From the NCBI GenBank assembly GCA_963921275.4, contig OZ001293.3, positions 3,520,001 through 3,584,000 of the forward strand: DNA of 64,000 nucleotides. The letters run 5' to 3'. The stretch is from an uncultured Hormoscilla sp. GTDB taxonomy: Bacteria; Cyanobacteriota; Cyanobacteriia; Cyanobacteriales; Desertifilaceae. Shown piece after piece: positions 8,197 to 61,325 of this stretch (position 1 is the stretch's first letter; every line of letters starts with the position of its first letter). A program made the translations under genes and the position numbers. The notes beneath the pieces are model-generated. The model ran no database searches and had not been told where the DNA came from. It worked only from the letters and a program-made list of their open reading frames with translations.

Positions 8197-9117
8197 TCAA
8201 CGCTTTGGTTTCTTCACCTCAGTCTGTTTAATCTGCTCTTTGGGTTTAAACCCGTAACCGAGATTTAATTTTCTGATTGAGGCATTTGCCGATTTTCTCA
8301 CATCACCCACCGCATCATTTAAGGCACGTTGCAGAAATGGTAGCACCTTGTCAGACTTAATCACCCCCAAAGCTTCCACAGCAGCTTGACGCACTTCTGG
8401 TTTGGCATCTTGACTTAACTTGCCCAAAGTCGGGATTAGTCGCTCAATTTCTGCTTTCATGCTATTAGATGCCGCAATCTTACCTAATCCTGACGCCACT
8501 AATCTCCGCACATCCCCATTCTGGTGATTAGTATATCTGGTTAACTGCCCAATAGATTTAGTTTGACTTGACTCTCCCCAGGCTGTCACATTCTGATATA
8601 ATTCTGGCAACGATGTCTCCTGGGTAGTACGAATAGTGCTCCCAGGAGACATCGAAGTCACCTCCTCTACAGGCGATCGCCTCTTTTTTTTTTCTTGCTC
8701 AATTTGTGCCAGTTCAGCTAACTGGACTTGTTTCCACATAATCTCATATTGCTGTCCCAGAAATTTGGTAATTTCTTGGCTCCGTTCTTCGGACGCCCTT
8801 TCTAATTGAGCAATTTTCTGCCGATTTTCTTCTAACTCCCTCTCATATTGACTTTGCAAAGACTCGCTTTGAGCAATTATCTGGCGACTTTCTTGCAACT
8901 GACTCTCATATTCCGATCGCACAGATTCAATTCTTTGTTGCATTCGAGACTCATGACTTCTCTCTGCTTTGGAAATTGCTTGACTAGCTTGCTTTTTGTG
9001 CTCAAGCTTTTGCTTAGCCAGTCTTTTTTCCATTAACCAGTAGGATATTGCTATTCCGGCAGCCAAACTGACAACCGCTGTCACAATTAAAATCCCTTCC
9101 ATAAGCAGCCCCTCCAT
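8197..9117 (-). CDS. Membrane-anchored coiled-coil / HEAT-repeat protein
   Basis: N-terminal TM helix, Q/E-rich coil, HEAT repeats VRRLVASGLG and VRQAAVEALG. Confidence 0.75.
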   Translation of the reverse strand: MEGLLMEGILIVTAVVSLAAGIAISYWLMEKRLAKQKLEHKKQASQAISKAERSHESRMQQRIESVRSEYESQLQESRQIIAQSESLQSQYERELEENRQKIAQLERASEERSQEITKFLGQQYEIMWKQVQLAELAQIEQEKKKRRSPVEEVTSMSPGSTIRTTQETSLPELYQNVTAWGESSQTKSIGQLTRYTNHQNGDVRRLVASGLGKIAASNSMKAEIERLIPTLGKLSQDAKPEVRQAAVEALGVIKSDKVLPFLQRALNDAVGDVRKSANASIRKLNLGYGFKPKEQIKQTEVKKPKR

Positions 9118-10200: not shown

Positions 10201-10244
10201 CGATGTACTCCGGGCGCACTACTCGTACTGCCCGTCGCACATCG
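10201..10244. repeat. 44-nt CGAT...ATCG hairpin micro-element
   Basis: 38/44 identical to the reverse complement of 60707-60750. Confidence 0.85.
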
Positions 10245-15160: not shown

Positions 15161-15302
15161 TGAGACTCTCCTCTCGTTCGACAAGCTTCGACAAGCAACG
15201 TTTTTTGAGAAAGCACGAGAACTTCTAATTCCCTCGGTTATTTACTGATGTTATCACTGCATCAGCTCTCAAGTAGCTTTTCCTGCTTTTCTTTTTCCCG
15301 AA

Positions 15303-15480
15303 GTGTCTCCTGGGAGCGCGGTTGAGCACTACCCAGGAGACACCGCCCAGACATTTTTTCTTACGCCTGAGGTGCTGGAGTCCCACCTACAGATGGGAGT
15401 GCATTGCTTGCTTCCCACCACATATCTGTTGACTCCGAAAGCCAGGTTCACCACCAGAGGGCTGTTAGCGGACCTAGCAT
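15303..15480 (-). ncRNA. Structured psaA leader, candidate psaA RNA motif
   Basis: 12-bp stem GTGTCTCCTGGG/CCCAGGAGACAC at 15303-15343 plus small hairpins including a UUCG-containing loop; not tested with a covariance model. Confidence 0.35.
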
Positions 15481-16059: not shown

Positions 16060-16988
16060 GGGCGTGTCATCAATTAAGCCATATTACAGCTGCCGCGAGG
16101 TAGATGGCACCCAAGAAATTGCGAGCGGTTTTATCGTAGCGTGTCGCCAGAGCCCTGTATTGCTTGAGTTTTTGGAATAGATATTCAATTAGATGCCGCC
16201 ACTTGTACATTTCTTCATCGTCTTCTCTGTGTTCTGTGCGGTTACTTTTTGGAGGAATGACAGCCATCCAATCCGCCTCTTTCAGGCGCTCGAGCACACG
16301 TTGTTCCGCATCATAGGCTTTATCTGCAAGCAGCGCGCCAATCTCACCGATTTTATCCAATAGCACGTCAGCGCCTTTCCCGTCGTGGGCTTGGCCAGGG
16401 GTAAGCCTTTCCCGTCGTGGGCTTGGCCAGGGGTAAGATGAAATCCTGTGGGATTGCCTTGGGCAATCGCAAGTGGCATGAATCTTTGTCGATAGTCCCC
16501 CTTTACTACGGCCTATGGCTTGGGTTTCGCACGTATCTGAGGGTGTTTTTTTTTGCACCCGCACGCTCGTTGATGGGCACGCAGGATGGTGGCATCAATC
16601 GCGGCGTATTCGTTATCGGCGTCTGAGGCCAAGACATCGAATACCTGCTTCCAAACTCCCTTTTCAGACCAACGGGTATGGCGGGTATGAACAACCCGAA
16701 AATCCCCAAAACACTCCGGTAAATCCTGCCAGGGAATGCCAGCACGATATCGATATAACACGGCAGAACACGAATAATCTCTTGTTCTTGGCTGTAGCGC
16801 CTGGGTCACCCTCTTTACCAGGTAAAAGGTGTTCGATCGCGTAGCGTGCGCGCAGCGCAATCCGTTCCCACTGGTCGTCTCGCAAACCATAGCGTCTCAT
16901 ATCATGCCCTCTTGATTGTTATTGCTGGATAAGGACTCCATACCGTATCCATCTACTTCTGTCAAGCAATTTGATTGATGACACACCC
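16060..16988 (-). mobile_element. IS5-family (IS427-like, two-ORF) element, defective copy 1
   Basis: TIRs GGGYGTGTCATCAA, TA flanks; [27 protein letters not shown]9 run at orfA/orfB junction. Confidence 0.92.
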
Positions 16989-17085: not shown

Positions 17086-17142
17086 CAGTATCACTTGACA
17101 TAGCGTGATCTAAAATATTATCACGCTGGTCAAGTGATACTG
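17086..17142. repeat. 57-bp palindromic mini-element (second copy 51467-51523)
   Basis: CAGTATCACTTGAC-ATAGCGTGAT...ATCACGC-nn-GTCAAGTGATACTG. Confidence 0.9.
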
Positions 17143-33134: not shown

Positions 33135-33645
33135 ATGGAAATTAGTAATTTAGACCATCTGGGATTAGTGGCAGGAGTAATAGATGAAATAGGCATAGAA
33201 GAAATAATTAACCGGCGATTGGGAGAACACTGGAGAAAATCAGCTCTGGTAAAGTCATAAAAGCAATGATAATTAATGCCTTGGGGTTAATTTCATCTGT
33301 ATCTGTTTGCTAAATTTTTTGAATGCCAAGCAATAGAACATTTGCTTGGAGAAGGGATAAAAATACTTGAATGATGATAGATTGGGCAGGGTCTTTGATA
33401 AATTATCTGACATGGGTATTAGAGAAATATTTGTAGAAGTAGTTTTGTCGGTTTTGAAAAACTATCAAATCTTGATGTAATCAGCAGATTTAGATACATT
33501 TAGATGCAAGTTCATTTCATATTCATGGAGAGTATAAAGTGGAGAATGTAGAGTATGAAGTTGGAGAAGCAGAATCGAGACCGATAAAGATAACTCATGG
33601 ATATTCATTCTTACCATAGACCGGATTTGAAACAATTTACAATGG
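33135..33645 (+). mobile_element. IS1634-family N-terminal remnant
   Basis: NLDHLGLVAGVIDEIG, LNDDRLGR, ITHGYS..HRPDLKQF. Confidence 0.75.
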
Positions 33646-34377
33646 AGTTATAGCATTTCTCAGAGTTGTGTGCCATATCTTCTTATCAATCACCCCGGCT
33701 TTTAACCATGCCCGTACTTGTTTACGGATTGGTGATGTAGTATTTAATTTTTCGACTAGCGCTTTGTGGTCTATCCTGTCGAAACATTTCGCAATATCTG
33801 CATCTAATACCCATTTGGGTTTCTGTTTGATGCTGCTGAATATTGCTTCAATTGCATCGTGGCATCCCCTTCCCGGTCTGAATCCGTAAGAGTTCCCCTC
33901 CATGTATGCCTCCCATTCTGGTTCTAATACAATTTTGAGGAGCCCTTGAGTCGCGCGGTCGTGCGTTGTGGGTATTCCTAAAGGACGCTTTTCATCTCTT
34001 CTTGGCTTGGGAATCCATACACGACGTGTAGGTTTAGCCTTGTTTGAGATTTCGATTTGCCTTACCAGTTCTAGTCGTTTCTCTGGGGTCAGTGACTTAA
34101 CACCGTCCACTCCTGCCGTTTTTTTACCCTGGTTTTCCTGCGTTACCCGCTGTACCGCTAAACATTTGGCAGCCCGGGAGCTTACCAGTAACCTCTGGAG
34201 TCTGCGAACTCTTTGCTTATTGCCTTCCATTGCCGCTCTGTAAATTCGTTTTTGCAACTTGAAGACTACCCTCTCCAGCTTCTGCCAGGGGATGGCCCTC
34301 CATTCATTCATCGATTCGGAAACCGTGCTCATGACGTATGCATTGCTACTTACAACTTCACAATTGACGTTACCCAT
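33637..34377 (-). pseudogene. Group II intron reverse transcriptase/maturase, truncated before the YADD domain
   Basis: KLQKRIYRA, GKKTAGVDG, RPLGIPT, SYGFRPGR, VLDADIAKCFD; start may be 34332. Confidence 0.92.
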
Positions 34378-35645
34378 CCATTATAGAAGGGCGTTAGCTT
34401 CTCCACTCAATCTTTCCCAGATACATCCTGCCGAATATAAGCAGATGTTGCGCCTTTGGTGGCTGCTCGTGCGATTCGGTCGCTCATGACCCGCAACAGG
34501 TCATGAGCGACCGGTTACATCAACCGGGAACTTTGATGTTCATGGGGGTTAAATTCCTCCCGCCCAGATGCAGGGTTGACACCGGTCGGAGGTGCTGCGG
34601 AGCGATATCACCGTGGTGCTGAGCGAGGACTCAAATGTAGGATAGCTGGTAGCCTAAATCGGTGACTCCGCTAGGAAAGATATCCAAGGTTAGAACAAGC
34701 GAACGTATAAAAACCTCGTTAACCAAAACCAGCGGAATAAGGCTATATACGCTGGTCCCAAAAGGGGAAGCAGTCAGGGCTAGCTTTGGGCAGTGGCTAG
34801 TCATGTATCCGAAAGACTGTCGGGGAATATTACGGACCTAAAGATATCGTAAAATGACATCAAGGAACGAAGTAACCTCTCGTGTGCTGTCTGGTCTCGA
34901 CCGGCTAGACAAGTTAGATATTAAGCGCAAGCCACGGGAGGAGGGATGTCCCAAAAAGCAAATGCCCAGGGTAATGCCTGGGATAACGCCCGGAGCAATC
35001 CCGGTGATGTCCACAAGGACGCTGACGTGGGACGGATATACCAGGATGCTGTTCAGATTAGTAACTCCACATATATTATGAGCCCGATTTGGACCCCTCG
35101 GGGACTGATGGAGGTATGAGTGAAGGTGTAGGTGAAACAGGGTGACTGCCGTCGGACGGCGATATAAACTAGGCGAGAGACCACAGGTTCCTTGACAACC
35201 GCTCGCTGACCTGCACATAGAAGGAGCCAACAAGTAGACAGTAAGGGCCTACGGTGGGTAACCCCTATAAAGCCTATCCATGACAAGGACCTGGTAACCA
35301 GTAGCCGTGTGCGGTGAAAGTCGCAAGCACGGTTTCGCTCTTGGAGGGTTGGGGAGCGATTCCCAGCTCGACCCCGACCAACCTATCGACCGGTGGTTGA
35401 GAGTATGTATCTGGTTTACTTCGTTCCTCTAGATGATTGGTTGTAGTTTTAGGTGGACTCTGTATGCCGGGTTTGTTGTCAGTGCTTATTGGTCGGTAAA
35501 CGAACCGCCAATGACCGTTATCCTTTCCCGTTTTGGGCCAGCGTGTAAGCCTTTCCGCTGGTTGTTAGTGACGACACTTACAAGCCTTTGTTTTACTCAC
35601 CATGACTACTTACTCGACGGTAACCGGTTTAGGCGAGCCTAAACC
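33670..35645 (-). mobile_element. RT-encoding group II intron, truncated at both ends and interrupted by an antisense intron
   Basis: Minus strand AACCAGCGGAAAGGCTTACACGCTGGCCCAAAACGGGAAAG and GGAACGAAGTAAACC match domain I of the other introns; leads into the RT ORF. Confidence 0.85.
34469..35379 (+). mobile_element. ORF-less group II intron, 911 nt, related to 4516-5449
   Basis: GTGCG start; domain V at 35303-35334; near-identical domain VI; EBS1 GGGCAG pairs with CTGCTC, EBS2 ACCAAA pairs with TTTGGT. Confidence 0.93.
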
Positions 35646-39001: not shown

Positions 39002-39539
39002 ATGTCGGACACTTTCACCAAACTGGCCTATGAAACGGTTCAGCAGAGCCAAAGTTATTTTGCTCGAGCGCATAAAACCATTAGTTGGTGATTGCGTTCC
39101 CTGGTGGCTCCACTGGTCGAGCAGAAAACTAAACCGTTGCCGCCGCAGGTGTTATATATCGGAAATTCCCGGGGAATTGCCTCAACTTTTACAGGGGAAT
39201 GCAGAGGAGTTGCCCTATTTGGATAACTACTTCCATGCAGTCACTAGCGTTTTTCTGTTCCACGAACTGCCCGGTGGGGTGCGTCAGCGGGTAATTAATG
39301 AATGCTCTCGGGTGACTCAACCAGGGGGAGTGTTTATTATCTGCGATTCAATTCAACTGCCTGATGCGCCTGAGTTTAAGGTGATGATGGAAAACTTTGC
39401 TGGCATTTTCCACGAACCTTACTACAAAAACTATATTAGTGATGATTTGGTAGGACGCTTAGAGTCGGCAAGCTTAACTAATATTGAGACTCAGGTACAT
39501 TTCATGAGCAAGTATTTGATTGCTCGCAAGCCCGAATGA
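39002..39539 (+). pseudogene. Class I SAM methyltransferase with internal deletion
   Basis: N-terminus MSDTFTKLAYET joined out of frame to C-terminal QGNAEELPY..FLFHELP..PGG; SAM motif I absent. Confidence 0.75.
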
Positions 39540-40378
39540 TGGAACTTTACCCTCATTCCCGGTGGCGTTTAATTCCCCTGGTGCGAGCATCTGGGCGGCT
39601 CCAGATGGCGATCGACAGTTGGTTATTGGAGCAGCACAGGCTGGGTTTACATCCTCCCACTCTGAGGTTTTATACTTGGGAGTCAGCGACAATTTCTCTG
39701 GGTTATCATCAACGCCAATGGCCGGAATTCTGGAATCACTTGACTTGGCAAGGTGTCCAGGTGGAGTTGGTCAGACGCCCTAGTGGGGGCCGGGCGGTGC
39801 TGCATCAGGGCGATTTAACTTATGCTGTGGTAACTTCGGGACTTCCTCCCAGACGCCGGGAAGCCTACGAACAGATTTGTGAGTTTTTGATTGCTGGTTG
39901 GCGATCGCTCGGTTTAGAATTGCATTACGGTTCCGCTGGGCGGGGCTACATCCACAACCCCAGTTGTTTGGCTACGGCGACAGAGGCCGATCTTGTTTCT
40001 GCATGTGGCGGTAAGTTTATTGGTAGCGCCCAACTGCGACGGAGTAAAGCTATTTTACAACATGGTTCGATGCCCTTAGAACCCGATCGGGGTTTGTTTG
40101 CTAGGGTATTCGAGACTGAAGCCCCTGCTTCCGTGCAGCTACCGACAGGCGATCGGGGAGATGCCTTAATTGAAATTGTAGTGGAAGCTTTAACTGATGC
40201 TGCTAGTCGTTGTTTCGGTGTCGAGTTTATCAGACAAGCATTATCAGAGTCCGAGTGGCAGGCTATTAGGCAGATGTCTTCTCTCCTCAGAGTCGGCTGT
40301 CCGGCGCGTTCCCACCCGCAGCATGGGAACCAGATTACCGGTTCCACCCGTGGCCGCCAAATAGCCTCCATCAGCTAA
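39536..40378 (+). CDS. Lipoate-protein ligase A / octanoyltransferase family
   Basis: QMAIDSWLL, RRPSGGRAVLHQGDLTY, KFIGSAQ, LQHGS. Confidence 0.9.
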   Translation: MMELYPHSRWRLIPLVRASGRLQMAIDSWLLEQHRLGLHPPTLRFYTWESATISLGYHQRQWPEFWNHLTWQGVQVELVRRPSGGRAVLHQGDLTYAVVTSGLPPRRREAYEQICEFLIAGWRSLGLELHYGSAGRGYIHNPSCLATATEADLVSACGGKFIGSAQLRRSKAILQHGSMPLEPDRGLFARVFETEAPASVQLPTGDRGDALIEIVVEALTDAASRCFGVEFIRQALSESEWQAIRQMSSLLRVGCPARSHPQHGNQITGSTRGRQIASIS

Positions 40379-40388
40379 TTGGCCCGAA

Positions 40389-40480
40389 GTTTTCCCAAAA
40401 GCAGCACTAGGTTTTAGGAAAAGCAGCACTAGGTTTTCCCAAAGCAGCCCTAGGTTTTGGGAAAAGCAGCACTAGGTTTT
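40389..40480. repeat. Four tandem 21-22 bp repeats
   Basis: GTTTTnnnAAA(A)GCAGCACTAG x4. Confidence 0.9.
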
Positions 40481-40577
40481 ATGGAACAGCGCCTGGTGGC
40501 GGCCACTTAACTGCTCTGAAGCGGAAGGCACCCTCTACACAAGGGATAGCGCGATTTTACCCTCATCATGACTAATA

Positions 40578-40860
40578 TCATGTCCGGATGATTAACCATA
40601 ATAAAAAAGATCTCTTGCGTTTGTTGGGTAGAGCTAAGCGCGAAACCCAACAGGGCTTACTTTCGATGTCTCCCGGACGCACGGCGAAAACCTTCGATAC
40701 CTCTGGGATGCACGGCAAAACCGATGCCTTCGGGATGCTTCGCAAAAACCCCGAAGGCATCGCCCAGAGGTATCGGGGAGACATCGCGGTTGGGTTTCGT
40801 GCTCCAGACCCAACCTACGGGTGATGAAATTTTTATCTTTTGGCTATATATCGGACATGA
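40578..40860. mobile_element. MITE with internal REP-like arms and nested hairpin elements
   Basis: TCATGTCCG...CGGACATGA flanked by TA; CGAAACCCAAC / GTTGGGTTTCG arms; inverted partial copy at 41396-41610. Confidence 0.8.
40664..40786. repeat. Three nested CGAT...ATCG hairpin micro-elements
   Basis: Perfect arm pairs 40664-74/40776-86, 40695-707/40763-75, 40722-34/40750-62. Confidence 0.9.
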
Positions 40861-40862
40861 TA

Positions 40863-41211
40863 TCACGTGACTCTGCAATCAAGTCACGTGACTCTGCAAT
40901 TGAGTCAACGTGACTCTGCAATTAGTCACGTGACTCTACAATAGGTTTGCGTAACTCTACAATAGATTTACGTGACTCTGCAATAGGTTTACGTGACTCT
41001 GCAATAGGTTGCGCGACTTGGCAATAGGTTCGCGCTACTTTGACATAGAGTCAAGTGACTTTGACATAGAGTCACTTGACGAAGCTCTAGATTCATGTGA
41101 ATTTGCTCTAGAAAAATATGACAGTGTTTCTAGATAAATGTGATAGTGTCTCTAGATTCATGTGAATTGCTTGTCGGTCATATGTGATTGAGAGCGGTAT
41201 TCATGTGATGC
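40863..41211. repeat. Degenerate ~21-bp tandem array, about 16-17 units
   Basis: TCACGTGACTCTGCAATnnnn drifting to TCATGTGA...TCTAGAT. Confidence 0.85.
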
Positions 41212-41430
41212 TAGCCCTTAATCCCTATTAAACTACGAACTACAAACCGCGTAGCGTTGCTACGAAATACATTAGAGAGCACATCATTCATGTGAATAAT
41301 GGGAGAATGGGAGCGTTAGGGTCTTGTCAGCCTCACTCTTTGCCACCTCACTCCATAACTCACATTAACAAACTTGAGGTAAAAAACCTATCATATCATG
41401 TCCGATCTATAGCCAAAAGATAAAAATTTC

Positions 41431-41551
41431 GGCGTTGCACATTTTAGAGATGATGCCCTTTTTTGCACAGGCTACGCTACTGAAAATGGCTTGTAGTCTA
41501 AGTTTGAGAGTTCTGCAACTATCTCCATCATCCCGTCCGAAGTGCAACGCC
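41431..41551. mobile_element. 121-bp MITE (IS1-like ends) inside the second MITE copy
   Basis: GGCGTTGCAC...GTGCAACGCC; flanks AAAATTTC/AAAATTTT; single ends also near 23479, 28298, 56901. Confidence 0.75.
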
Positions 41552-42118
41552 AAAATTTTATCCCTTCGGCTGCGCATCTGTAGGTTGGGTCTGGAGCACG
41601 AAACCCAACCCCGCGGAATAATGTAGCGATACGGCTAGAAAAAGCTAATGTTAGCCGAAGTGGTAGTTTTATTGCTAATTTACTGATTTAAAATCGTAGC
41701 TATCGCTCTTTCAGATTTCTGCCTCTATTCGTCAAAGTGATTAATTCTGAGGGTGAAAGTGTCCCAGTAAAAATATATTTTGAAACTGAAGGTGATGGGA
41801 TAGTTCAACCAGGCGATCTGCTAGCCGCTAAGTTATTCGTCTTTGGACAACCCTAGCGTAATGCTGCTAGTCAGAACCTGACGTTAATTATCACAGAAGG
41901 AAACCGGTGGCGGTCGCCTGTTCCGAATTCCATTCTGAAGTTGATGGTTCGTTGATAAATTTCTCCCAGCGTCTACTAATAGATTGCTGGGAGAATAGCA
42001 TAAAAATCCAGTTAAGTATGCTAGCAATGATTTTTTTCTCTTCGTGAAATGCTATGCTAAATTGTCATCAAAAGAATCCCAAACCCAGGTTTCGCCTGAA
42101 TTTGGGGTTTTCGTCGAT

Positions 42119-43316
42119 GGGTGCATCTCCTTCGCTAAGTACAAATACTGAGATTTCAGAGAGAGGCTTTGAGGATAATCTATAAAAGTACTCCTCATCC
42201 TGGTAGAAGTCATGAACCCAGAAATCCAAGCCCAAATTGAAGCCCATGCTCAAGCCCGGAAGCGGCCCGACTCCATGAACAAGCTTTGGCTACCGTACCG
42301 GAGCAACTCACCACTCTTGAAGGAATCGAAGCCACGGTCCGCTCACTTGTTCTCCAATATGTCAGCCCTGAAATCGCCCTTTTTTGATCGCCAAGGAGAG
42401 CGGGACAAGCGCAGGACACTTTAGCACCGTCAAGAGCATTGTAGGGGAACTGAAGCTCACCAGTCAGCAAGCACAGTATTTTGAGGTCAAAGCCTATAGT
42501 CAGTGGAGTCCTTACCTAAAGAAATGTTGCCTAGAGTTGAGTGGGAACTCATCTGATGAACAATCGGCAAGGCAAATCAAGTTACTGACGGGGATGAAAG
42601 TCGAATCGAGGGACACAGCAGCGACTGGTGCAGCGTGATGAATTTCCCGAAGGGCAAGCGTCACACCCCGTGCAGGCATTAACTGTGGATGGAGGGAAAG
42701 TGCGGTTACGGACCGAACTGGGAGAACTCTGCCAGTGGCGAGACTACAAAGCCGTGAACTTGGATGGGGAGTGGGTAGGGGCATATTTCCGAGATCGCGA
42801 AGGACTGGTGGACTTTGTCAACCAACAAGCGCTTCTTTGTACCAGTTTTCACCCTAGGGAGATGGTCACTCTGGGCATTGGGAATATCCTGGGGAAAATC
42901 TCTAACCGAGTAGAAATACTCGATTGGTATCACTTAATGGAGAACTTAGAGAAAGTCGGCGGCTCCCAGCAGCGATTGGACCGGGTGAAGGAACTCCTGT
43001 GGAAAGGCCAGGTGAAGGAAGCCTTGAGAAAGTTTGAAGATTGGGAGCATGAGCGAGTAGACAGGTTGAAGGGCTATGTGGAGAAGCATCAGCATCGCAT
43101 CGTCAACTACGGGTACTATCAGGCTGAGGAGATTCCCATAGGATCAGGGCAAGTCGAATCAACAGTAGGCCGAGGGGCAAGGGTGAAGTTATCTGGAGCA
43201 CAGTGGAAGGAGGAGAATGTCCCCCAGGTGTTACGACATCGTTGTGCTTGCTTGAACGGAGTCTTTACAGCACTCACTATGAGTAATAATACTTACCTAA
43301 CTACTGGGATGCACCC
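42119..43316 (+). mobile_element. ISKra4-family IS, frameshifted
   Basis: TIRs GGGTGCATC / GATGCACCC; 8-bp TSD TCGTCGAT; VDGGKVRLR, ILDWYHL, IGSGQVES. Confidence 0.92.
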
Positions 43317-44806: not shown

Positions 44807-47604
44807 TCAATCTTCGGTAAACTGACGCCACAACGCTTCAATTTCTGCGAGGATTTCGCAAGGCAGCAGTTCTTCCTCTCCCTCATTGATGTAGCCATCA
44901 CTGTTAATATCTGCTTTTGCCCCTTTTGGGCGCATTAAAATTGCATATGTTGTCCGAAAAGCCTCTGTGTACTGATTTTCAAATTTTAAAGTATTTGGAT
45001 CTACCAATGCCCCAAAATTACCATCCTTTAGCTCATTTTCAAGCTGCGGCAGTCGATATTTACGAATTGTGTCAACTAGAAATTTATGCGCTCGTTCGGA
45101 AATGTACTTAACTACTTGCTTATCTTCTGCAATATCCTCAAACTCTTCTGGGCTTTCTACCATCTGCTTTTGCAGTTGATTGGTTTTTGTCAGAATCTGG
45201 CGGTAGTAAGCCAGTGCCCGAGCTATATCCTCTGCTCCCTCTGCTCGCTTGTGCCTGTTTGCTTCTGTAAGGAAATCCGGTAATATTTTTAGGAGCTTTG
45301 GAGTCGGTAGCTCGATCCCAAGAGCGACATCCCGAATAATTTGTAGAGACTCTTCCGGTTGCAACCAACCAAATCCGATAAAAGCAATGATTCCGAATAT
45401 AAAAGTAGCAACACCACCACTAATTTGGCTCCGAGTCACTAAACGCGCCTTTTGACTAGCCTTGATGTATTCTCGATCCATAGAGCTGAGTTCATCTCTA
45501 TAGTTATTATAAATCTCTTCTACCTCTACCAACCAGGATCCTCGTAGTAAAGAATCGCGATGCTTACCTTTTTCTTTCCACAAGTTAGCTGCTTGCTCTA
45601 TCTCCCGCTGCTTCCGCAAACGAATTCTATTTTTATCCAACCACCAACGCAATGTTTCCCAGCGACGAATGAGAATTTCATGAGCTATTTATACTGTCAC
45701 TTTTCCTTTTATTTCCTCTATTTCTAGTGACAGTTCATCTGATTCTAGTACAGTTGCAACTGATTCCTGGCTTGGCACGCTAACCTCCTCATTTTCCTCT
45801 TGGTTCGTGACAATCAGCCTTGCGTCAGTTAAGGCTTTGAGGGTTCTCTCCACTAACTCTTCAGGATATTTCTCCCTAACCAAATCGGATTTGTATACCC
45901 GGCGTCCCGTATCCTCAGTTCCATCTCCCAAATTGGTTAGCTCCAGAAAAATTTACTGAGCGCAAGCCTGAGCTTCCGCATCTAAACTCTCGTAAACAGC
46001 TTTAGCTTTTCGATCTAACGCGCCCTCAAGACCACCAATCTTTTCCCAATATACTTGTAAAGTTAGCTTCCCTCTTTGACGTTTTTCCCACAACGTTTCC
46101 AAAACCAATTCTAGTATGGGTAAATTTCCAGACGAGTCATTGCTCCCAGACGAGTCGTTCATCTGCTGCAACAGTTCTTCTACCAGCTCTGGTTCTACCT
46201 CCAGTCCGACTTTCTCTGCAGGTTTGACGATGACCTGGCGATAGTCATCTAGACTGGGTGGCACCAACACATAAGACTGCTGTAACTTTTCATAGAGTTT
46301 TCTTACTTTGAGACAAGAGGCGATAAAATCTGCTCGGAGTGTGATTACCAGTTTGAATTTATCCGCCGCGTATTCTAAAGCTTCCAGAAGCATGTCTAAA
46401 AAACTTTGGCGCTCTGGGTCTAAAAATTTTTGGTGCTCCTTTGAAGTTTCTTGTTCTTGTAGAGTAAAAAGTTCCTCAAATTGGTCTACTAACAACACTA
46501 CCATTGGCTCTGTTCGCTGGCGCAGCCACCGGACAAATCCTTCGCCTCCAAAATGCAACAATCCTTCTATTTCCATTTGCTGGCGATTTTTTTTCTCTTC
46601 TGTTCCAGCATCTACTAATGCGGAAGCCAAGGCTTGAATAGGATGCTTTCCAGGGCGAAAGCTCTTAATCAACCACTGTTCGCTTCCAGGTATCTGTTTC
46701 CCTTGCTGCAACTGGGCGATTAATCCAGCCCGCACGACGGAAGATTTACCGCTACCAGAAGCTCCCACTACAGGTAGAAAGGACCGCTGGCTGAGTTCGT
46801 TGATGAGTCTCTGCGTCAGATCCTCTCGCCCGTAAAAGTATTTGGCATCTTTGACCCCAAAGGCTCTTAACCCCATGTAGGGACACAATCCGACATCTAC
46901 TGGTTTGGCACTTTTTTCCCCAGGTGGCAAGATTTCAATCACGCCCTGGGTTGCTGAGAGGGAGGCATCCCACCAAATTTTGCTTTCTGCAAGTTCTGTA
47001 TGGATTTGAACAATCCATTTGGCGACAGGAAGACCATTTTCTGAGTCAGCTACTTCCAAGGCTTTGAGTAAAACTTGGGCAAATTCTTCTGAATTCTGGA
47101 GGGTTGCAGCACCGGCTATCAAGCACTGACCTATTTGAGATTCGAGACGCAAGTCTTCTACCCAATCTGCTAAAGATTCTGCCCCAGGACAATCTAAGAT
47201 AATGATTTGTCGATCGATTTCTGATTGGTGCAGTTGCTGTCTTAACCAAGAACGACTGATTTCAATGCAATCGCCAATGACCAATAAGGCTTCTCCAGTC
47301 TGGGTTTGTTCGATTCGCCCTCGCAGGTATAGGAAGGCGGTTGATTTTTGTTGAGATGCTTACCAATGGAGGGTTTCAGGATGCGATCGCAAACAATCCT
47401 GAATCGCTCCTTGACATCTGGCAAGTCTGTTTTTTCTGGATGCCAATAATTAAGCTCGAATTCCCCTGCACCTTTCAACGATTTAATCAATTCCAAAGTC
47501 GTTTGACCGTCCGATAGTCCTTCTACTACCAACGCCTGTCGTGGAGGGCGAGAGTCAACATCTACAGTTTTTAAGCCCAAAACCAGTTCCCCCATTGCTG
47601 CCAC
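44807..47604 (-). pseudogene. nSTAND1-type NTPase signalling protein, multiply frameshifted
   Basis: CPYMGLRAF, GASGSGKSS, VDQFEELFT, TLRADF, GDGTEDT, W-rich repeat and TM helix across four ORF pieces. Confidence 0.85.
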
Positions 47605-47694
47605 AATCCATTTAGGTGTTTGTAATGTATATTCTTTGCAGAAAGAATCAGTTTCGCCAATTTGCTGTGGTAATTCTGATATTTCCTCCCTCAG

Positions 47695-48456
47695 CTAGTT
47701 GGGAATTGACCACTGTTCTGCCAGACCCAAACGCTTTTCATATAAGCGTTGTCTCCAGCCTCCATGTTCTAGCAAGGCTCCCCAGAGAGAGAATGGTAAT
47801 GCTCGTCTGGGAAAAGCTACAGAAGGATTTCCCAAATGCTCTAGCAAGTTGTTTGCCTGGGCTAGGAGTAAAGCTGGCAAGGGAGTAATTTCGCTGCGAG
47901 TTGCTGCTGACGGCCAGACTTGACGCCCTACCCACAGGACGTTCAAATCATCAATTAACTCCTCCGCCTCCAGGGAATAGGTGCGATCGCGAGAATGATA
48001 ACGTCCCTGATCGTGCAATTGTAAATGGGTAGAATAGCCCCAAATTCTGACAAACCCTTCATCAGGGTCTACTTGGGCCGCCAGGTAATAATCAGCAGCC
48101 CACATAGGGATATCCAGCCATTCTTGGGGAACCCGCAATTCGGTCAAATCTATTGTATCGCTAGGAATCAGTACCAATCGTTTTGTCCCCAACTGAATAG
48201 CAGTCCCATTGACAACTTCCCAGAAACTAGGGAGAGCCGAGACAACAGGCCAAATCCTGGTAACAGAATTATATTCCGCTTGCAGCCAAGCGAGGAAAGT
48301 CTGCAAGCAAAGTCTATTAAGATAGGCTCTCCAGCGACCACTTGGAGAAGAGAAGGACTGACTTTGCTTCCAAGCTTCTGCTTGTGCGGTTTCCGATATC
48401 TCCAACCACAGATGAGTTTCCTCAGTAAATAGATCCAGGGCTAATTCCATAATCAA
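47695..48456 (-). pseudogene. DUF1822-family protein, probably C-terminally truncated
   Basis: WRAYLNRLCL, WEVVNGTAI, LRVPQEWLDIP.WAADYYLA. Confidence 0.75.
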
Positions 48457-50481
48457 GTCTCCGTTTCCGGTGGTGTATCAAGATTGCCATAATGTTGTAG
48501 GAGCCATGCTTTAATAGATGTTCCCATACTGTTAAGTACGTTGGGCGCGAGATCCTTATGCAGTTTTTCCTTTCCCCACTGAGCCAGTGCCAGCAGCAAG
48601 GCTTTGTTCAACTCTCTGAGCTTGAGCGTGCGAGAAACTTTAGACTGCGATATTGCCAACTGTTCTGCAATCTCCTCTTGAGTTAACCCCTGACCGTAGT
48701 GCATCTGTAGCATTCTCTGCCTCAAGAGCCGCTGTGTTTCTGGTCCTGTTTGACAAATGTGACTGTCTAAGGCAGCCACTAAAACCGAGTTTACCTGCTC
48801 TTGCCGAGATTGCTGTCTGTGCTGTTCTTCTTCATTTATCAGTTGAGCGAGTAATGATTCTGCCTTCCCCCTGGGAGAACATCCTGTAATTCTGCCGCTG
48901 CTTCCCTCCCAGCCGGTGCATTGAGGGATGTCATCGGGGGAGCCAGATATGATCGGATCGCCCGAGCACAAGTTTCCATCCATTCTTGGAGCGTTGCAGC
49001 ATTACATTCAGGTCCTGGCGCTTGCAGTTGGCCGAGTCGTTCCCTATTGTAGAGTTGCCCGATCGCCTCCCAGGTATTGCCATCTGGAGGGGTGAGTCTG
49101 CGGTTTCCTCTGGGTTTGGTAGGAACATAAACATCCTTGAAGCACTCCCAGGCCAAAATGTAGCTATACTGCACTAGGTCATAATTTGAGCTTTGTCAAT
49201 TATTTGAAAATTCAGAGTTAGCAGAGATTGTATCTCTTCTTTGTGGAGACTATGAGCATTGTGTATCGGATCAGCAATTGCCGATTTAAATGAATCAAAA
49301 TCTTCATAATACTGGGAAGATAAACATTTCTTTTTTACCCATTTCCACAACCGCTCAATTCGGCATGATGGTAAATATAATAACCTTGAGTTCTTTAGCT
49401 TTTTCCTAAAGCAAATTGCATTTTTGATAGCGAGCATTATCTATTACTAATAAAATTGGCATATATTTTTTTTTCTGATCTTTTCCAATAGCTCGCAAAC
49501 CGTTATAGCATTTGGCATCATTTGTTACGATTATAACTTCCGAAGTAATCGCATTTAATGCCCCTAAAACATTAAATCTTTTTCTCTCTGATGCTGTTTT
49601 AATAAATATTCTCTTAAAACACCATAAAAATTCTATAAATGCACGAAATAGGCGGCATCAACAAACGACTCTTTTTCCTTCGGAAGCCTCTAACAGTCTG
49701 GGTTCTAGAGTTTTTTCTTTATATTCTTGTTGTATGTCTGAGTCGGCTTTTCCTGGTATCTGTCCTACCTTTCCCCATTCCCATCCTTAACATAAAATTC
49801 CTGACCTGGCTACGTTTAATCCCAGTTAATTCTTTTTGATTTTTATGTGAATTTAACTGAGATATCCTGTCGAAACCACCTGCCAAATATTATTTAAAAT
49901 AATCCCGCATTGTATTTTGACATACCCCAGTAAGCCGGGCTATTTCTTTATGCTTTATGTTTTGACTCTTGAACCCTGCATTTTCTTACGAACTCTCGGG
50001 TTGGGATGATAATATCTTAAATAATTCAGTTGTTCTTTTTCTTCAGCAGTAAATGATATGTTAATCATTATTACAGATGTTACTAATTCGATGGCATTCC
50101 TATCATAACTCTCACAAAAGCGCAAGTCGATCCCTATCCGAGTATATCAATAGTTGCAGGAGACAGCCTGTAATTTTCTAAAGATAAGCTGAGCTGCTGC
50201 ATGCTAGTATGGCGCAATAAGCTCCAATTAGTCTGGCCAACCGATTTATCTCGCTGGCGCAGTTCATCTTTGATCGTCCGTCTGAAGACAACAACAGCGT
50301 AATCTTTCAGGGAGCCGTACTCAGGGTCAAAGCCTGCCAGCACAGTATCTACCTTAGAACGCGCTATCTGAAAATAGTCCTCCAAAGTATATTCAGAGAA
50401 CTTAAATTTCTGCCACTCAAGGCCAGCAGCATTGTAACAAGCTTCTTCCAAGTAAGCGTACAGATGATTACCATTATACAA
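48453..50481 (-). pseudogene. Sigma-70-like (HetZ-like) regulator split by IS630 and a frameshift
   Basis: HLYAYLEEACY, WSLLRHTS, YILAWECFK, C-terminal HTH LTQEEIAEQLAISQSKVSR; removing the IS restores ATIDSYILAW. Confidence 0.8.
49167..50144 (-). mobile_element. IS630-family element, decayed
   Basis: TA duplication at 49165 and 50145; FNVLGALNA, IERLWKWVKKKCL. Confidence 0.85.
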
Positions 50482-51050: not shown

Positions 51051-52011
51051 TTACCACCCCTCAGTTTTCCAGCGAGCCCATAGAGGGGGGACCGGTAGTC
51101 CATGACGAATCGCTCGAATAATCAGACGAAGTCCAGTGGTAAACAGAGAACACCAAGAACGGAAGCGTATGATGCGAGACTTGGGTAAAGGCGTCTCATC
51201 GCTCATACCAGCAGAGGTGGACCAATACATGGCTAGTGCCATAACCTTGCATCAAACGTTCGTTTGCGATCTGCATGTTCTTTTTGAGTTTCAGTAATGC
51301 CAAAACCAGAGGTTTTGAAATCAGAAAACATGAGTTCAATTCCCCAGCGAATCCCATAATCTCGTGTTTTGTATTCAGAGGCGGGACAATCGCTATGATC
51401 CAAGCTTCGCCATAGCCAGGGTCTTGAAGGATGCCAATGTTAGTTTTTACCTCTAATTTCTCCTCCCAGTATCACTTGACATAGCGTGATAATATATAAT
51501 ATCACGCATGTCAAGTGATACTGCCCTGATGTTGGAAAATTAGGTTACCCTTCAGGCGAATCCGGTAGCTCCAAGCCATGATTTTGACACCATTCCACTA
51601 AGGTGCCATAGAATCTGTCAGCCATCAACAAGATAGAAAACTCTGAAGACAGCAGATAATCTACTTTTTCAAGTAATTGCTTTTGCATAGCTACACGCGG
51701 CTATCAACTTAAGCCGGGACAGTAAGTCGGGGTAAGGGATTGGGCGATTGTGTTTTTGATGACTGTCGTGGCAGGGGGATCTCACCCATATGGTCTACAA
51801 CCCACTCAAATAGATTCTCGTGCATAGTATCCAAAGAGTCGTGGCGCTGCTGTGGTACCATCCGCTCGCCTGATGTCAAAATTGTAAATGACAGTCCCGT
51901 TCCACTAATAGCCTTAGCCAGGCGCTTCCCACCTCCGTCTCCCACCAGGAAGATTCACCGATGCGGCCCTCGACGGGCAATCCCTTGTTGATGGCCCCCG
52001 ACGCTGCTAAT
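51051..52011 (-). mobile_element. IS4-family transposase remnant
   Basis: RWGIELMFSDFKTSGF, MALAMYW; interrupted at 52012. Confidence 0.6.
51467..51523. repeat. 57-bp palindromic mini-element, copy 2
   Basis: Same arms as 17086-17142. Confidence 0.9.
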
Positions 52012-53643
52012 AGACATCTCCAAAAATAAAACCCTTGTCAGCTCTGGGTTTTAAGCTCTACCTCCATTTTCTTCTTTTTGTTTAGGGTGTGTCATCAATC
52101 AAATTGCTTGACAGAAATAGATGGATACGGTATGGAGTCCTTATCCAGCAATAACAATCAAGAGGGCATGATATGAGACGCTATGGCTTGCGAGACGACC
52201 AGTGGGAACGGATCGAACACCTTTTACCTGGTAAAGAGGGTGACCCAGGCGCTACAGCCAAGAACAATAGATTATTCGTGTTCTGCCGTGTTATATCGAT
52301 ATCGTGCTGGCATTCCCTGGCGGGATTTACCGGAGTGTTTTGGGGATTTTCGGGTTGTTCATACCCGCCATACCCGTTGGTCTGAAAAGGGAGTTTGGAA
52401 GCAGGTATTCGATGTCTTGGCCTCAGACGCCGATAACGAATACGCCGCGATTGATGCCACCATCCTGCGTGCCCATCAACGAGCGTGCGGGTGCAAAAAA
52501 AAACACCCTCAGATACGTGCGAAACCCAAGCCATAGGCCGTAGTAAAGGGGGACTATCGACAAAGATTCATGCCACTTGCGATTGCCCAAGGCAATCCCA
52601 CAGGATTTCATCTCCCCTGGCCAAGCCCACGACGGGAAAGGTGCTGACGTGCTATTGGATAAAATCGGTGAGATTGGCGCGCTGCTTGCAGATAAAGCCT
52701 ATGATGCGGAACAACGTGTGCTCGAGCGCCTGAAAGAGGCGGATTGGATGGCTGTCATTCCTCCAAAAAGTAACCGCACAGAACACAGAGAATACGATGA
52801 AGAAATGTACAAGTGGCGGCATCTAATTGAAAATCTATTCCAAAAACTCAAGCAATACAGGGCTCTGGCGACACGCTACGATAAAACGGCTCGCAATTTC
52901 TTGGGTGCCATCTACCTCGCGGCAGCTGTAATATGGCTTAATTGATGACACGCCCTAGCTGTTAATTCCTGTTTTTTCGGTTGTTTTTATTTGAGGTTCT
53001 CCAATATAGGCTTTATCCCCTGCAAAAATTTGATCTGGATCGAAAACGACGCTCGCAAGATTTATATCGCTTGCTGGGCCTCTTTCTCCAGATACAACAT
53101 CGACAAGATCTGCACGCTACCAGGTAAAACAATTAATTGATTTTTCAAAGTATTTCTTCTTACTTGAGTAAAACTTTTTCTGCTCTTCATAGTCTTTAGG
53201 TCTTGGTATGGCTTGCGCTATCGACTATCAACTCATATTCTGTGTTTGGATAAATATTCTTCATCTTCTCCATTTTTTTTGTTCAAGTAAACGGCAAAAG
53301 ATCTTGCCAATAATTAAAAATATCATTAGCTTTCACCCAAAAAGTATACCTAATACTTGAAATGTTAATCCTTGACACATCAAAGTTAAAATAATTTGCT
53401 CTTCTACTAATAATTTAGGTTTCGCCCCCACGACGTATCAATCTAGTTTTGTGTTCTTCCACCTTTTCTTTATGATTTTTATCCAACAGCAATTGCAATA
53501 AGTTGTATTAAGTTTTCATAGCTGATACCGATGAGCCGTTTTGCTTCTTTAGGCTTGGCTTGCAAATATGTCCAGGTAATACTCGTCACAAAATTAAATT
53601 TTCAAATCTTATTATAGCATAAATTTCTATTTTGGAGATGTCT
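52012..53643 (-). mobile_element. IS5-family (ISL2-like) element, decayed and interrupted
   Basis: TIRs AGACATCTCCAAAA / TTTTGGAGATGTCT; AAT duplication; FAGDKAYIGE, GPASDINL. Confidence 0.75.
52085..52955 (+). mobile_element. IS5-family (IS427-like) element, defective copy 2
   Basis: Near-identical to 16060-16988; TA flanks. Confidence 0.92.
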
Positions 53644-55793: not shown

Positions 55794-56805
55794 ACCTAAG
55801 TTGCGACCTATTAAAAAAAATATGAATTACCCACTTAGACTTTACAGATATTTGGGATATTTCGTAGCTTTTGATACAAAATTATATTTTTTTTGTGCTA
55901 GACGGCGGGTTGGCTGTTTATAGGTTATAATGTACTAAAATAATAGTTAATTGCTGGGGGATATAGATGATGGAAGATATGATTACAACAATTTTTGTTC
56001 TTTGTGACGAGCTACTAAAAGCGTTAAATATAAAAGAAGATCCACAAGTAAAAATGAACAATGCCGAAGTGATGACAGTCGGATTAGTTGCTGCATATTT
56101 TTTCGGAGGACACCACGATCGCTCTTGTCAATTTATGGTCGAACACAAGTATATAAAAAATCTGTTAAGTAAAAGTAGGTTCAATCGTCGATTACACAAT
56201 ATTGACGAACCAATTTGGATGTTTTTCTTCCAAGTTATAGCTCAAACATTTAAAGAGCTCAATCCGGGTCAAGAATATATTCTTGATAGTTTCCCGGTGC
56301 CAGTATGTGATAATATTAGGATTGATAGATGCCAAATTTATAACAAGGAAGAATATCGAGGGTATATTGCCAGTAAAAAACGTTATTTTTATGGATTAAG
56401 AGTTCATATGTTGGTAAACAAAAATGGAAAGCCAATAGAATTTTATCTAGATACTGGTAGTTATAATGATGTTAAAGTTTTGCAATCTTTTGGCTTTGAC
56501 TTACCATCAAATTCAATAGTTTATGGAGATAAAGCTTATAATGATTATCAATTAGAGGATTTACTAAAAGAGTCGTCAAGTATAATGTTAAAACCTTTGC
56601 GAAAAAAGAACTCAAAAAGAAAAGAATATTCTTGTTTTGAATATATACAAAAAGTAACAAGAAAACAAGTTGAAACCTGTTTTAGTCGAATCACCAATTT
56701 GTTTCCCAAGTCAATTCATGCTGTTACATCTAAGGGATTAGAGTTGAAAATAATTCTCTTTATCATAGCTTTTTGTATCCAATTTTTATAGGTCGCAACT
56801 TGAGT
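55794..56805 (+). mobile_element. IS982-family element, apparently intact
   Basis: TIRs ACCTAAGTTGCGACCTA / TAGGTCGCAACTTGAGT; TSD TAATTA; low GC. Confidence 0.92.
55967..56791 (+). CDS. IS982-family DDE transposase
   Basis: ILDSFPVPVC, YFYGLRVH, YGDKAY, RKQVETCFS. Confidence 0.92.
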   Translation: MMEDMITTIFVLCDELLKALNIKEDPQVKMNNAEVMTVGLVAAYFFGGHHDRSCQFMVEHKYIKNLLSKSRFNRRLHNIDEPIWMFFFQVIAQTFKELNPGQEYILDSFPVPVCDNIRIDRCQIYNKEEYRGYIASKKRYFYGLRVHMLVNKNGKPIEFYLDTGSYNDVKVLQSFGFDLPSNSIVYGDKAYNDYQLEDLLKESSSIMLKPLRKKNSKRKEYSCFEYIQKVTRKQVETCFSRITNLFPKSIHAVTSKGLELKIILFIIAFCIQFL

Positions 56806-59585: not shown

Positions 59586-59605
59586 ATATCTCCCGATTCT
59601 ACTCA

Positions 59606-59652
59606 CGATGCGCGAGGGGTAGTGCGATTAGCGCGACACCCCGACGGCATCG
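59606..59652. repeat. 47-nt CGAT...ATCG micro-element flanked by ACTCA repeats
   Basis: Matches reverse complement of 60992-61032 except for a 6-nt indel and 2 substitutions. Confidence 0.85.
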
Positions 59653-59663
59653 ACTCAACCCAA

Positions 59664-59978: not shown

Positions 59979-61325
59979 CTAGGGGAGTTTTGTCAAGCAA
60001 GTCGCGATCCGCCGAGCAGCCCCTGGTTTTCCCATCCGCCGCTGGCCATTTTCATAAATCAGCTGTAGCCCGTCTGGGTCACGCAACAGTTTTTCTAGAA
60101 AATCGGCAACCTGACCTGGCTGCTGCACCAGCACCAGAGAAGACCCTAACAGGCGAGACTGGGCTTCGGCAAATGCTGGGGTAAACTGGGGGCCTCCCCC
60201 GGGAATCGCGATCGCGGGTTTTCCTAAGCCCACAAACTGTTCTGTGGCCGTCCCCGCCATGGCGATCGCCACATCTGCCCAGTGCAAGCATTGATTATAA
60301 CCCTTTTCCGTCAGGAGCAATGTCCCATGTTTCTGGATGTAGGTCATGCTTGCATGCAGCTTATAGTATAATCGGTTCTCATCGACACGCGGAAGCCAGC
60401 CGGCTGATTCTGCCATTTCTCCCATCCTCTCTACCGTTAAGAGAGGCGCGATCGCCCCTGCAAATATCACATTTGAACGCCTCCTGCCGAGGATACAAGC
60501 AGCCGTCTGCAGCAGCAACTGCCAATTTTCATAAGCTTCTGGCGATCTCGAACCCGGCAGCAGCAGGATCGTCAGCTGGCGGTCCCGTTCCCCTTTTTCC
60601 CCATTCGGGTGCGCCAAAGCAGCAATTGGCTGTTGGGGCTGTAAATCATCCATCATCGGATTACCCAGATCGAAAACCGGTATTTTACTCTGTTTTAATC
60701 TTGCTCCGATGTGCGATGCGCAGTACGAATAGCGCGCGCGGAGCACATCGGAGGTCAGGGAATCTCTGGGAAAAACGGCCTGACAGCGGCGGCTACTCAT
60801 CAACCAGCGTTCCCAAGGTAGATATACCGAACCGGACCAAGCCTGCCATTCATATCCTGGTAGCACCCCTGCTTCATCCCTCAGGAAATATTCCGACTTG
60901 GCCGTGCCCACAAAAGCATACTTCCCACCGCTCCACCAGGCAAACAATAGCGGTACAATATCCCCTACTGCCAGTATTTTACCTTTCCTTTCGATGCCGT
61001 CGGGGTGTCGTCGCACTACCCCTCCCCCATCGAGGGATCCCCCTATCCAACGGCGTACTGCTTGCCACTGGGCGATCGTCAGGCCCAGTAAGCCACCCCT
61101 TAGATCCCGCCACAGCTGACGCCCATCCATATATATAAAGCCACCAGAAGGCATCGGCTTTACTGGACCGATTATCGGAATCCCCAGTTCGCGGTACGCA
61201 ACTCCCTCTCCTACTAAGGGCAGGGCTGCTAACTCCAGAGGCCCCGCGAAGGATTTTAGTTGGCGCAGGATTCTGACAGCGATCGCATCTTCTCCATGTC
61301 CGTTACTCAGGCAAAGTAGCTTCAT
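59979..61325 (-). CDS. Lipid-A-disaccharide synthase-related conserved protein with two hairpin inserts
   Basis: LSNGHGED, MPSGGF, GTAKSEY, LGNPMMD, LLPGSR, MAGTATEQFVGLGKP. Confidence 0.88.
   Translation of the reverse strand: MKLLCLSNGHGEDAIAVRILRQLKSFAGPLELAALPLVGEGVAYRELGIPIIGPVKPMPSGGFIYMDGRQLWRDLRGGLLGLTIAQWQAVRRWIGGSLDGGGVVRRHPDGIERKGKILAVGDIVPLLFAWWSGGKYAFVGTAKSEYFLRDEAGVLPGYEWQAWSGSVYLPWERWLMSSRRCQAVFPRDSLTSDVLRARYSYCASHIGARLKQSKIPVFDLGNPMMDDLQPQQPIAALAHPNGEKGERDRQLTILLLPGSRSPEAYENWQLLLQTAACILGRRRSNVIFAGAIAPLLTVERMGEMAESAGWLPRVDENRLYYKLHASMTYIQKHGTLLLTEKGYNQCLHWADVAIAMAGTATEQFVGLGKPAIAIPGGGPQFTPAFAEAQSRLLGSSLVLVQQPGQVADFLEKLLRDPDGLQLIYENGQRRMGKPGAARRIATCLTKLP

Follow-up and report, generated by a model that had tools for sequence, protein, structure and literature searches.

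Introduction

How do three perfect hairpins, each with its own arms, come to lie inside one another in the loop of a MITE? This question is raised by a block of 123 nt at 40664–40786 of the stretch of cyanobacterial DNA analyzed here, which is 64 kb long, comes from a Hormoscilla-like host and is called the window throughout. A preliminary description of this DNA had seen in the block a family of enzyme-less mobile hairpins that lands in its own members. From the analysis presented below it is probable that the block consists of three very small (~40–47 nt), non-autonomous mobile palindromes from one lineage-specific family, the first of which entered the loop of the MITE and was followed by two successive self-insertions.

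Results and Discussion

Anatomy of the nested block

Re-reading the sequence at 40664–40786 gave an exact match to the string reported before. A script that extends the pairing inward from the CGAT...ATCG ends resolved it into three concentric hairpins with perfect arms of 11, 13 and 13 bp and without any mismatch in these 37 bp, and after removal of each inner unit by its coordinates the layers L1, L2 and L3 measure 42, 40 and 41 nt, by which the three nested layers with perfectly complementary arms were reproduced. The outer layer L1 (40664–40694 + 40776–40786, 42 nt) has 11-bp arms, the middle layer L2 (40695–40721 + 40763–40775, spanning 40695–40775, 40 nt) has perfect 13-bp arms and surrounds L3, and the innermost layer L3 (40722–40762, 41 nt, perfect 13-bp arms, 15-nt loop) is the sole uninterrupted unit with the loop type of the nested layers; none of the three is assigned to a strand. 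Folded as single-stranded DNA the 123-nt block reaches an MFE of −42.7 kcal/mol, which corresponds to z = −8.4 in a control of 500 dinucleotide shuffles (mean −18.3, sd 2.9, best −28.3).

The arms of all layers start with CGAT-purine-pyrimidine-CT. Among their first 11 positions five vary (5, 6, 9, 10 and 11), any two layers differing at three or four of the 11, and each change is mirrored in the opposite arm. Alignment of the layers also bore out the related loops that had been noticed earlier, as GC-NNN-GC-(A/G)AAAAC is common to L1–L3. Judged by this comparison the three layers are homologous in sequence, beyond mere likeness in shape. They have one common orientation, and L2 and L3 are each placed directly 5' of the 3' arm of their outer unit, at the 3' end of the host loop, with L3 coming directly after AAAAC and L2 after AAAACCTT. 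The near-constant insertion point 3' of AAAAC given in the preliminary description was thereby confirmed, since the inner units all abut the outer 3' arm. In the folded block, one-sided bulges repeat the sequence of the apical loop.

The host MITE and its surroundings

The block is carried by a long imperfect palindrome (40575–40863, no strand assigned) with terminal inverted repeats at 40575–40586 and 40852–40863. Its part from 40578 to 40862 (285 nt) folds with −76.3 kcal/mol compared to a shuffle mean of −37.5 (z = −10.0, 0 of 200 shuffles being equal), and by this fold and the terminal repeats the host MITE, previously delimited as 40578–40860, is real. In the apical loop of the MITE the triple block occupies the 3' edge, directly against the MITE 3' arm, as about 10 bases are unpaired 5' of the block and none 3' of it, both in the fold with the block and after its removal. 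With the block taken out, the MITE flanks still fold as a hairpin that has the junction within its loop. As the block abuts the MITE 3' arm in the same way as L2 and L3 abut theirs, one placement rule is seen at three levels, namely in the MITE, in L1 and in L2.

A partial second copy of the host MITE at 41393–41610 (minus strand) has 38 nt and 31 nt in common with the first one and diverges from it one base ahead of the hairpin block. It cannot serve as an empty site and bears a different 123-nt insert, a palindrome with 10-bp inverted ends (41431–41553) that does not belong to the CGATG family. The block lies within a 2.2-kb gene-free, repeat-filled stretch between a lipoate-protein ligase-like gene (39536–40378) and an ORF starting at 42628, where the region 40380–42600 is gene-free throughout and composed of repeats. 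Directly flanking the host MITE, three tandem arrays of 21–22-nt units were found at 40389–40490, 40865–41074 and 41085–41166, with about 4, 8 and 4 copies.

In a plasmid collection no match was found for the host MITE, and likewise none for 50 kb of the window, while the 123-nt block gave three matches only, all at chance level (E = 4). A gapped hairpin pattern derived from the host MITE turned out to be too generic, as the loci that it matched came from many phyla and none among at least 126 loci carried the MITE. Translation of MITE and block in one frame gave no protein candidate, and with the other-frame translation a HMMER search against 1.84 billion representatives resulted in a single match at E = 7e-4 to a WD40-type repeat protein, which was rejected as chance.

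The wider family in the window

The 64-kb window contains six further units with CGATG...CATCG ends, whose loop differs from that of the nested layers and which make up a sister subfamily. The unit at 8611–8654 (plus strand, 44 nt, perfect 14-bp arms) is located in frame in a HEAT-repeat gene (8197–9117, minus strand), the unit at 10201–10244 (minus strand, imperfect arms, 61.8 bits) lies between psaL and psaB, and the one at 15298–15345 (minus strand, 51.8 bits), whose ends are decayed and whose inner arms equal those of 8611, is found upstream of psaA. The unit at 59606–59652 (plus strand, 53.7 bits) is placed just upstream of the start of aspartate kinase. The remaining two, 60707–60750 (plus strand, referred to as site 2) and 60992–61032 (minus strand, site 1), both reside in frame in the gene 59979–61325 (minus strand). 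Taking nested and free-standing units together, the family reaches a density of about nine units per 64 kb without a visible strand bias among these nine. It is marked by CGATG...CATCG ends, G-rich/C-rich inner arms and a loop that is specific to each subfamily. Four of the six units had been listed as copies in the preliminary description (10201, 59606, 60707 and 60992); they exist, but they have the sister loop type and imperfect arms, and 8611–8654 as well as 15298–15345 had been overlooked.

The six sister units show 74% mean column identity and the loop G(T/C)AGT(A/G)CGA...TAG(T/C)GC. Imperfect arms occur in four of them, with mismatches common to the pairs 10201 and 60707 as well as 59606 and 60992, and these mismatches shared within pairs argue that the four copies are held together by descent and not by structure. 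The idea of a family conserved by structure can thus be kept for L1–L3 and for 8611 but not for the four sister units with imperfect arms, which are held by sequence. The arms of 8611 and L1, 32 kb apart, differ at one of 11 positions.

To link the two subfamilies we used a covariance model (R2) trained on the six free-standing sister units alone. Its best non-training match in the 64 kb is L3, with 25.2 bits and E ~4e-4 on the minus strand and 22.4 bits and E ~0.002 on the plus strand, the next match having E = 0.03. As R2 ranks L3 first among all sequences outside its training set, the nested layers can be regarded as a sister subfamily of the six units. A second model (R1), built from seven units and run with filters off, revealed no new copies at E < 0.01 over the 64 kb except opposite-strand echoes of training units. 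In 68 loci from other cyanobacteria, which add up to 603,436 bases, the same model gave 0 matches at E ≤ 1, and the family is thus lineage-restricted. A free-standing unit with a GC-NNN-GC-AAAAC loop, which could be the source copy for L1–L3, was not found in the window, and a search of the window and of 1.17 Mb of loci for hairpins with the loop motif of the stack yielded none besides L3. A hairpin from a Pseudanabaena MAG (locus L053, 1216–1256; 41 nt, CGAT...ATCG, 13-bp AT-rich arms and a loop containing GGCGAAAC) looked alike by eye and was rejected, as R1 gave it no score at E ≤ 1.

Counting hairpins is less informative. The window contains seven near-hairpins of 34–52 nt with CGAT...ATCG ends compared to a shuffle mean of 0.53 and a maximum of 4, but other 4-mer ends score about as high in the real sequence (GATG 7, overlapping with the CGATG ends, and AAAA 6), and the family therefore rests on the alignment and the covariance model and not on the hairpin count.

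Empty, filled and doubly filled sites in genes

Three of the nine units (8611, 60707 and 60992) are located in frame within ORFs that are kept open and for which full-length homologues exist. Calling the units non-coding, as had been done before, is thus right in so far as they have no gene of their own, but these three are translated within their host proteins. The gene 59979–61325 (minus strand, 448 aa) encodes a lipid-A-disaccharide synthase-related protein, belonging to the TIGR03492 family by the names in the source, for which 5068 homologues were found at E ≤ 1e-10, mostly with 417–431 residues among the matches listed. For an alignment (A3) the query was combined with 12 homologues out of the 120 listed (P0003–P0010, P0012, P0017, P0034 and P0063). 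The peptide of site 1 (unit 60992) is present in four of the 13 rows, namely the window, P0003, P0004 and P0005 (90–92% identical), and missing from the other nine including P0006–P0009 at 76–81% identity. At site 2 (unit 60707) only the window and P0003 have the peptide, and the 11 rows of 13 that lack it include P0004 and P0005, which are very close. The nearest named relatives of two window proteins are, among the matches listed, from the MAGs Hormoscilla sp. GUM202 and Hormoscilla sp., with identities of 90%, 86% and 73%.

P0003 carries 15 extra residues at site 2 in the middle of the unit-encoded peptide, following those that are encoded by the end of the loop of the host unit. Comparison with six-frame translations showed that nine of the 15 match another reading frame of unit 60707 on the same strand, and the same frame of unit 59606 shares the run RANRTT with them. 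This match means that the extra residues are encoded by a second family unit nested in the first one, in the same orientation and near the same junction of loop and 3' arm as in the triple stack. Site 2 thus represents, at the protein level, a series of empty (P0004 and P0005), singly filled (window) and doubly filled (P0003) states. A check for such a series of zero, one and two layers among copies of the MITE had been proposed; the series was seen in this gene, at the protein level only, and not in the MITE. As read from the encoded peptides, it independently supports both mobility and self-targeting of the family and shows that nesting recurs independently in the same orientation near the loop/3' arm junction of the host.

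For the HEAT-repeat gene an alignment of the query with eight of 60 matches showed the 8611-encoded peptide in P0002, P0124 and P0128, and its absence from P0125–P0127 as the next closest homologues, at a site that is a variable linker where distant homologues cannot be aligned. Smaller changes were also observed: P0124 and P0128 as well as P0005 from the other gene have seven additional residues (21 nt) within unit-encoded peptides, which are either smaller insertions or duplications in unit loops or variants with a longer loop. P0009 has a 15-residue insert, one unit in size, at a third place in the 59979–61325 homologue.

Mobility, self-targeting and alternative explanations

The proposal of an enzyme-less hairpin family inserting into its own members is supported by the presence and absence of units in orthologues, by the nest in P0003 and by the R2 match on L3. 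Since the units cover 0.6% of the window, at least two of eight insertions would fall anywhere in a unit at random with a probability of ~1e-3, and with ~1e-6 if one 3-nt spot and one orientation are required. As a mechanism we propose that insertion acts on hairpin DNA, either extruded or single-stranded, so that the loop edges would be the exposed target, and that each unit would offer the same loop-edge target to the next one. For the non-nested units a host hairpin loop is clear for L1 only and none of the six sister units has a convincing one, so that the targeting of loop edges amounts to no more than a preference, seen in the nests, and not to a universal rule. In one orientation the 5' flank of the units is often pyrimidine-rich and CTT-like. 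Perfect yet differing arms could arise if a perfect stem is required in the transposing copy or if one arm is regenerated from the other during copying.

The mobilizing enzyme would act in trans and be encoded elsewhere in the genome. Among the candidates we tentatively put first the HUH tyrosine transposases, of either the IS200/IS605 or the RAYT kind. Such enzymes (IS200/IS605 TnpA, RAYT) have been described to recognize single-stranded hairpins, to join without duplications and to be orientation-specific (PMC3733652), and they are ranked first for these three properties. Genes of the HUH/Y1 type, the RAYT domain Y1_Tnp included, as well as TnpB and IS110-type genes are absent from the 68 window ORFs that were scanned against Pfam (35 ORFs of at least 150 aa and 33 more, of which 26 have 90–149 aa and seven are long ones scanned again at a looser cut-off), in which the only mobile-element matches are to fragments of DDE transposases and to a group II intron reverse transcriptase. 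The latter belongs to a truncated intron-type ORF at 33637–34377 (minus strand), and group II intron domains were matched at 5371–5448 and 35300–35366.

These DDE fragments, which are of IS4/IS5 type and located at 16070–16890, 52183–52945 and 55967–56791, lead to another possible explanation, in which the units are minimal MITEs moved as double strands by cut-and-paste through an IS-encoded DDE transposase that binds the CGATG ends, the terminal CG maybe being a duplicated target. Formally the arms are indeed terminal inverted repeats of 11–14 bp with conserved outer bases, and the unit 59606–59652 is flanked on both sides by the same five bases (59601–59657). It is however the sole one of seven units examined with a direct repeat, so that a consistent target duplication is not seen. 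The net gain in the coding genes points in the same direction: 14 residues or 42 nt were gained at site 1 with its 41-nt hairpin and 15 residues or 45 nt at site 2 with its 44-nt hairpin, and both gains, in which presence and absence are read at the protein level only, thus equal the hairpin +1 nt. A duplication of the terminal CG would give the hairpin −2 nt and was rejected on these grounds, and the observed gains fit selection for in-frame survivors. Insertion at HIP1 sites was discarded as well, since the flanks do not complete GCGATCGC and the coding gains are again the hairpin +1 nt. Furthermore, the fixed orientation of the nested units is unexpected for a symmetric cut-and-paste element, and 40–47 nt is far under the usual sizes of MITEs. 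Taken together, a DDE-driven origin appears improbable to us.

Even less probable is an origin without any transposition, in which the stack has grown locally by template switching or foldback copying and the indels of the relatives reflect slippage at palindromes. Palindromes are hot spots for template-switch mutation, foldback copying would account for the perfectly complementary arms, and the seven-residue changes of relatives within unit-encoded peptides would fit too. Duplication and drift should however leave mismatches, whereas the layers differ from each other at three or four of 11 arm positions and in their loops and each is still perfect. The arms of L1 are moreover nearest to those of unit 8611, 32 kb off, and related units are found at unrelated loci, including the two sites in a conserved gene that are empty in relatives.

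That the layers form one designed structure, such as a regulator, a terminator or a protein-binding palindrome kept by selection as functional RNA or DNA, is very improbable despite the very stable fold, the compensated arm changes and the position of units 10201, 15298 and 59606 next to gene ends or starts, because there is no Rfam family at the block (the three matches in the whole window being one tRNA and two group II intron domains), the one-sided bulges repeating the apical loop are needless in a single designed helix, units occur within genes in frame and relatives can do without them, and no match was found in the 603 kb from 68 other cyanobacterial loci.

Comparison with known repeat systems

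With serial insertion of mobile palindromes as the preferred reading, the closest kin of the units can be looked for among small repeats. REPs are short (20–40 nt), GC-rich imperfect palindromes with many dispersed copies and are thought to move as single-stranded hairpins. The REP/REPIN and RAYT system resembles our units, which are likewise short GC-rich palindromes without a gene of their own, mostly intergenic and sometimes in genes, with compensated-stem variants; in terms of size the units are palindromes of 40–47 nt, nine of them in 64 kb. They differ in the REP tag, an unpaired GTAG/CGTC at one end, as in eight of nine units both ends are CGATG/CATCG. GTAG does occur in four of the six sister units, inside the loop; L1–L3 lack it. 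Insertion of REPs into palindromic targets and their presence in genes have already been described (PMC3733652), but self-insertion with a constant junction and orientation, as seen for our units, was not found for REPs in the available text of that work.

In-frame insertion in open, conserved genes, the trait known from RPEs, is seen in three of the nine units. RPEs measure ~100–150 bp and occur in Rickettsia, in contrast to the 41–47 nt of our units, the 14–15 residues that they add and their cyanobacterial host. Both are palindromes that lie in frame in functional coding genes and add a short peptide (PMC3733652, PMC3184786), and in-frame repeat insertions in general are reviewed in PMC3184786.

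SDRs resemble the units as very small mobile repeats of cyanobacterial genomes with precise insertion. The SDRs of Elhai et al. 2008 are reportedly 21–27 nt long. That SDRs are shorter, as stated in the preliminary description, agrees with the 40–47 nt of our units, which are whole hairpins whose layers differ in arms and loops, in a comparison that takes SDRs by description only. SDR5 is known to insert between the third and fourth bases of HIP1 (PMC4390886), and in the available text of PMC5861425 SDRs are reported only in Nostocaceae; our units differ in both respects, with a Hormoscilla-like host and flanks that are not HIP1. The HIP1 octamer itself is present in 28 copies in the window.

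MITEs are 70–300+ bp long and show target duplications and ends matching an IS. In our units the inverted ends are present, but a flanking repeat is found in only one of seven and the size is under this range; here the MITE is the host. Common to the units and MITEs such as Nezha from Nostocales are the non-autonomous nature, inverted-repeat ends, stable folds and empty and filled sites between relatives (PMC3184786). No description of this family was found in the literature compared, which did not include the SDR paper of Elhai et al. 2008, and the main text of PMC6520454, which describes the Hormoscilla genome, has 0 occurrences of transposase, mobile, palindrom and MITE. We class the units as kin of REP-, RPE- and SDR-like small palindromic mobile repeats, set apart by the oriented self-nesting at a fixed junction and by the in-frame residence in conserved cyanobacterial genes.

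Implications and context of the window

If this reading is true, the family offers a clean natural series (empty to single to nested, with fixed junction and orientation) for how enzyme-less repeats such as REPs, RPEs and SDRs move. From the fixed junction and orientation one could deduce a rule for how the DNA is cut and joined, and this rule could be tested with a candidate enzyme. Repeats that are absorbed in frame into conserved cyanobacterial proteins also bear on gene annotation and on symbiont genome evolution, and in practice such units will interrupt the assembly of Hormoscilla-like genomes and give rise to spurious length variants in them. It is conceivable, and would be our guess for a bolder model that we hold with less than even confidence, that single-strand hairpin transposons of ~42–45 nt, among the smallest autonomous-looking mobile DNA, target a 3' loop edge that is recreated by every copy, build oriented 'Russian-doll' stacks in this way and seed peptides of 14–15 residues into essential proteins of a sponge-symbiont cyanobacterial lineage by means of a hairpin-specific candidate enzyme.

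Apart from the genes already mentioned, among them psaA, psaB and psaL, the window encodes glutamine synthetase and a phycobilisome protein. Together with the 28 HIP1 copies and the two group II intron domains, these genes identify the host as a cyanobacterium. Another palindromic family is represented by two 57-nt hairpins at 17086–17142 and 51467–51523, which have arms of 14–16 bp in common and a similar loop; each is near IS4/IS5-type transposase fragments, and they are possibly IS ends. On the minus strand, nSTAND1 NTPase, DUF1822 and sigma-70-like ORFs follow one another at 45953–48983 and may make up a module for conflict or signalling.
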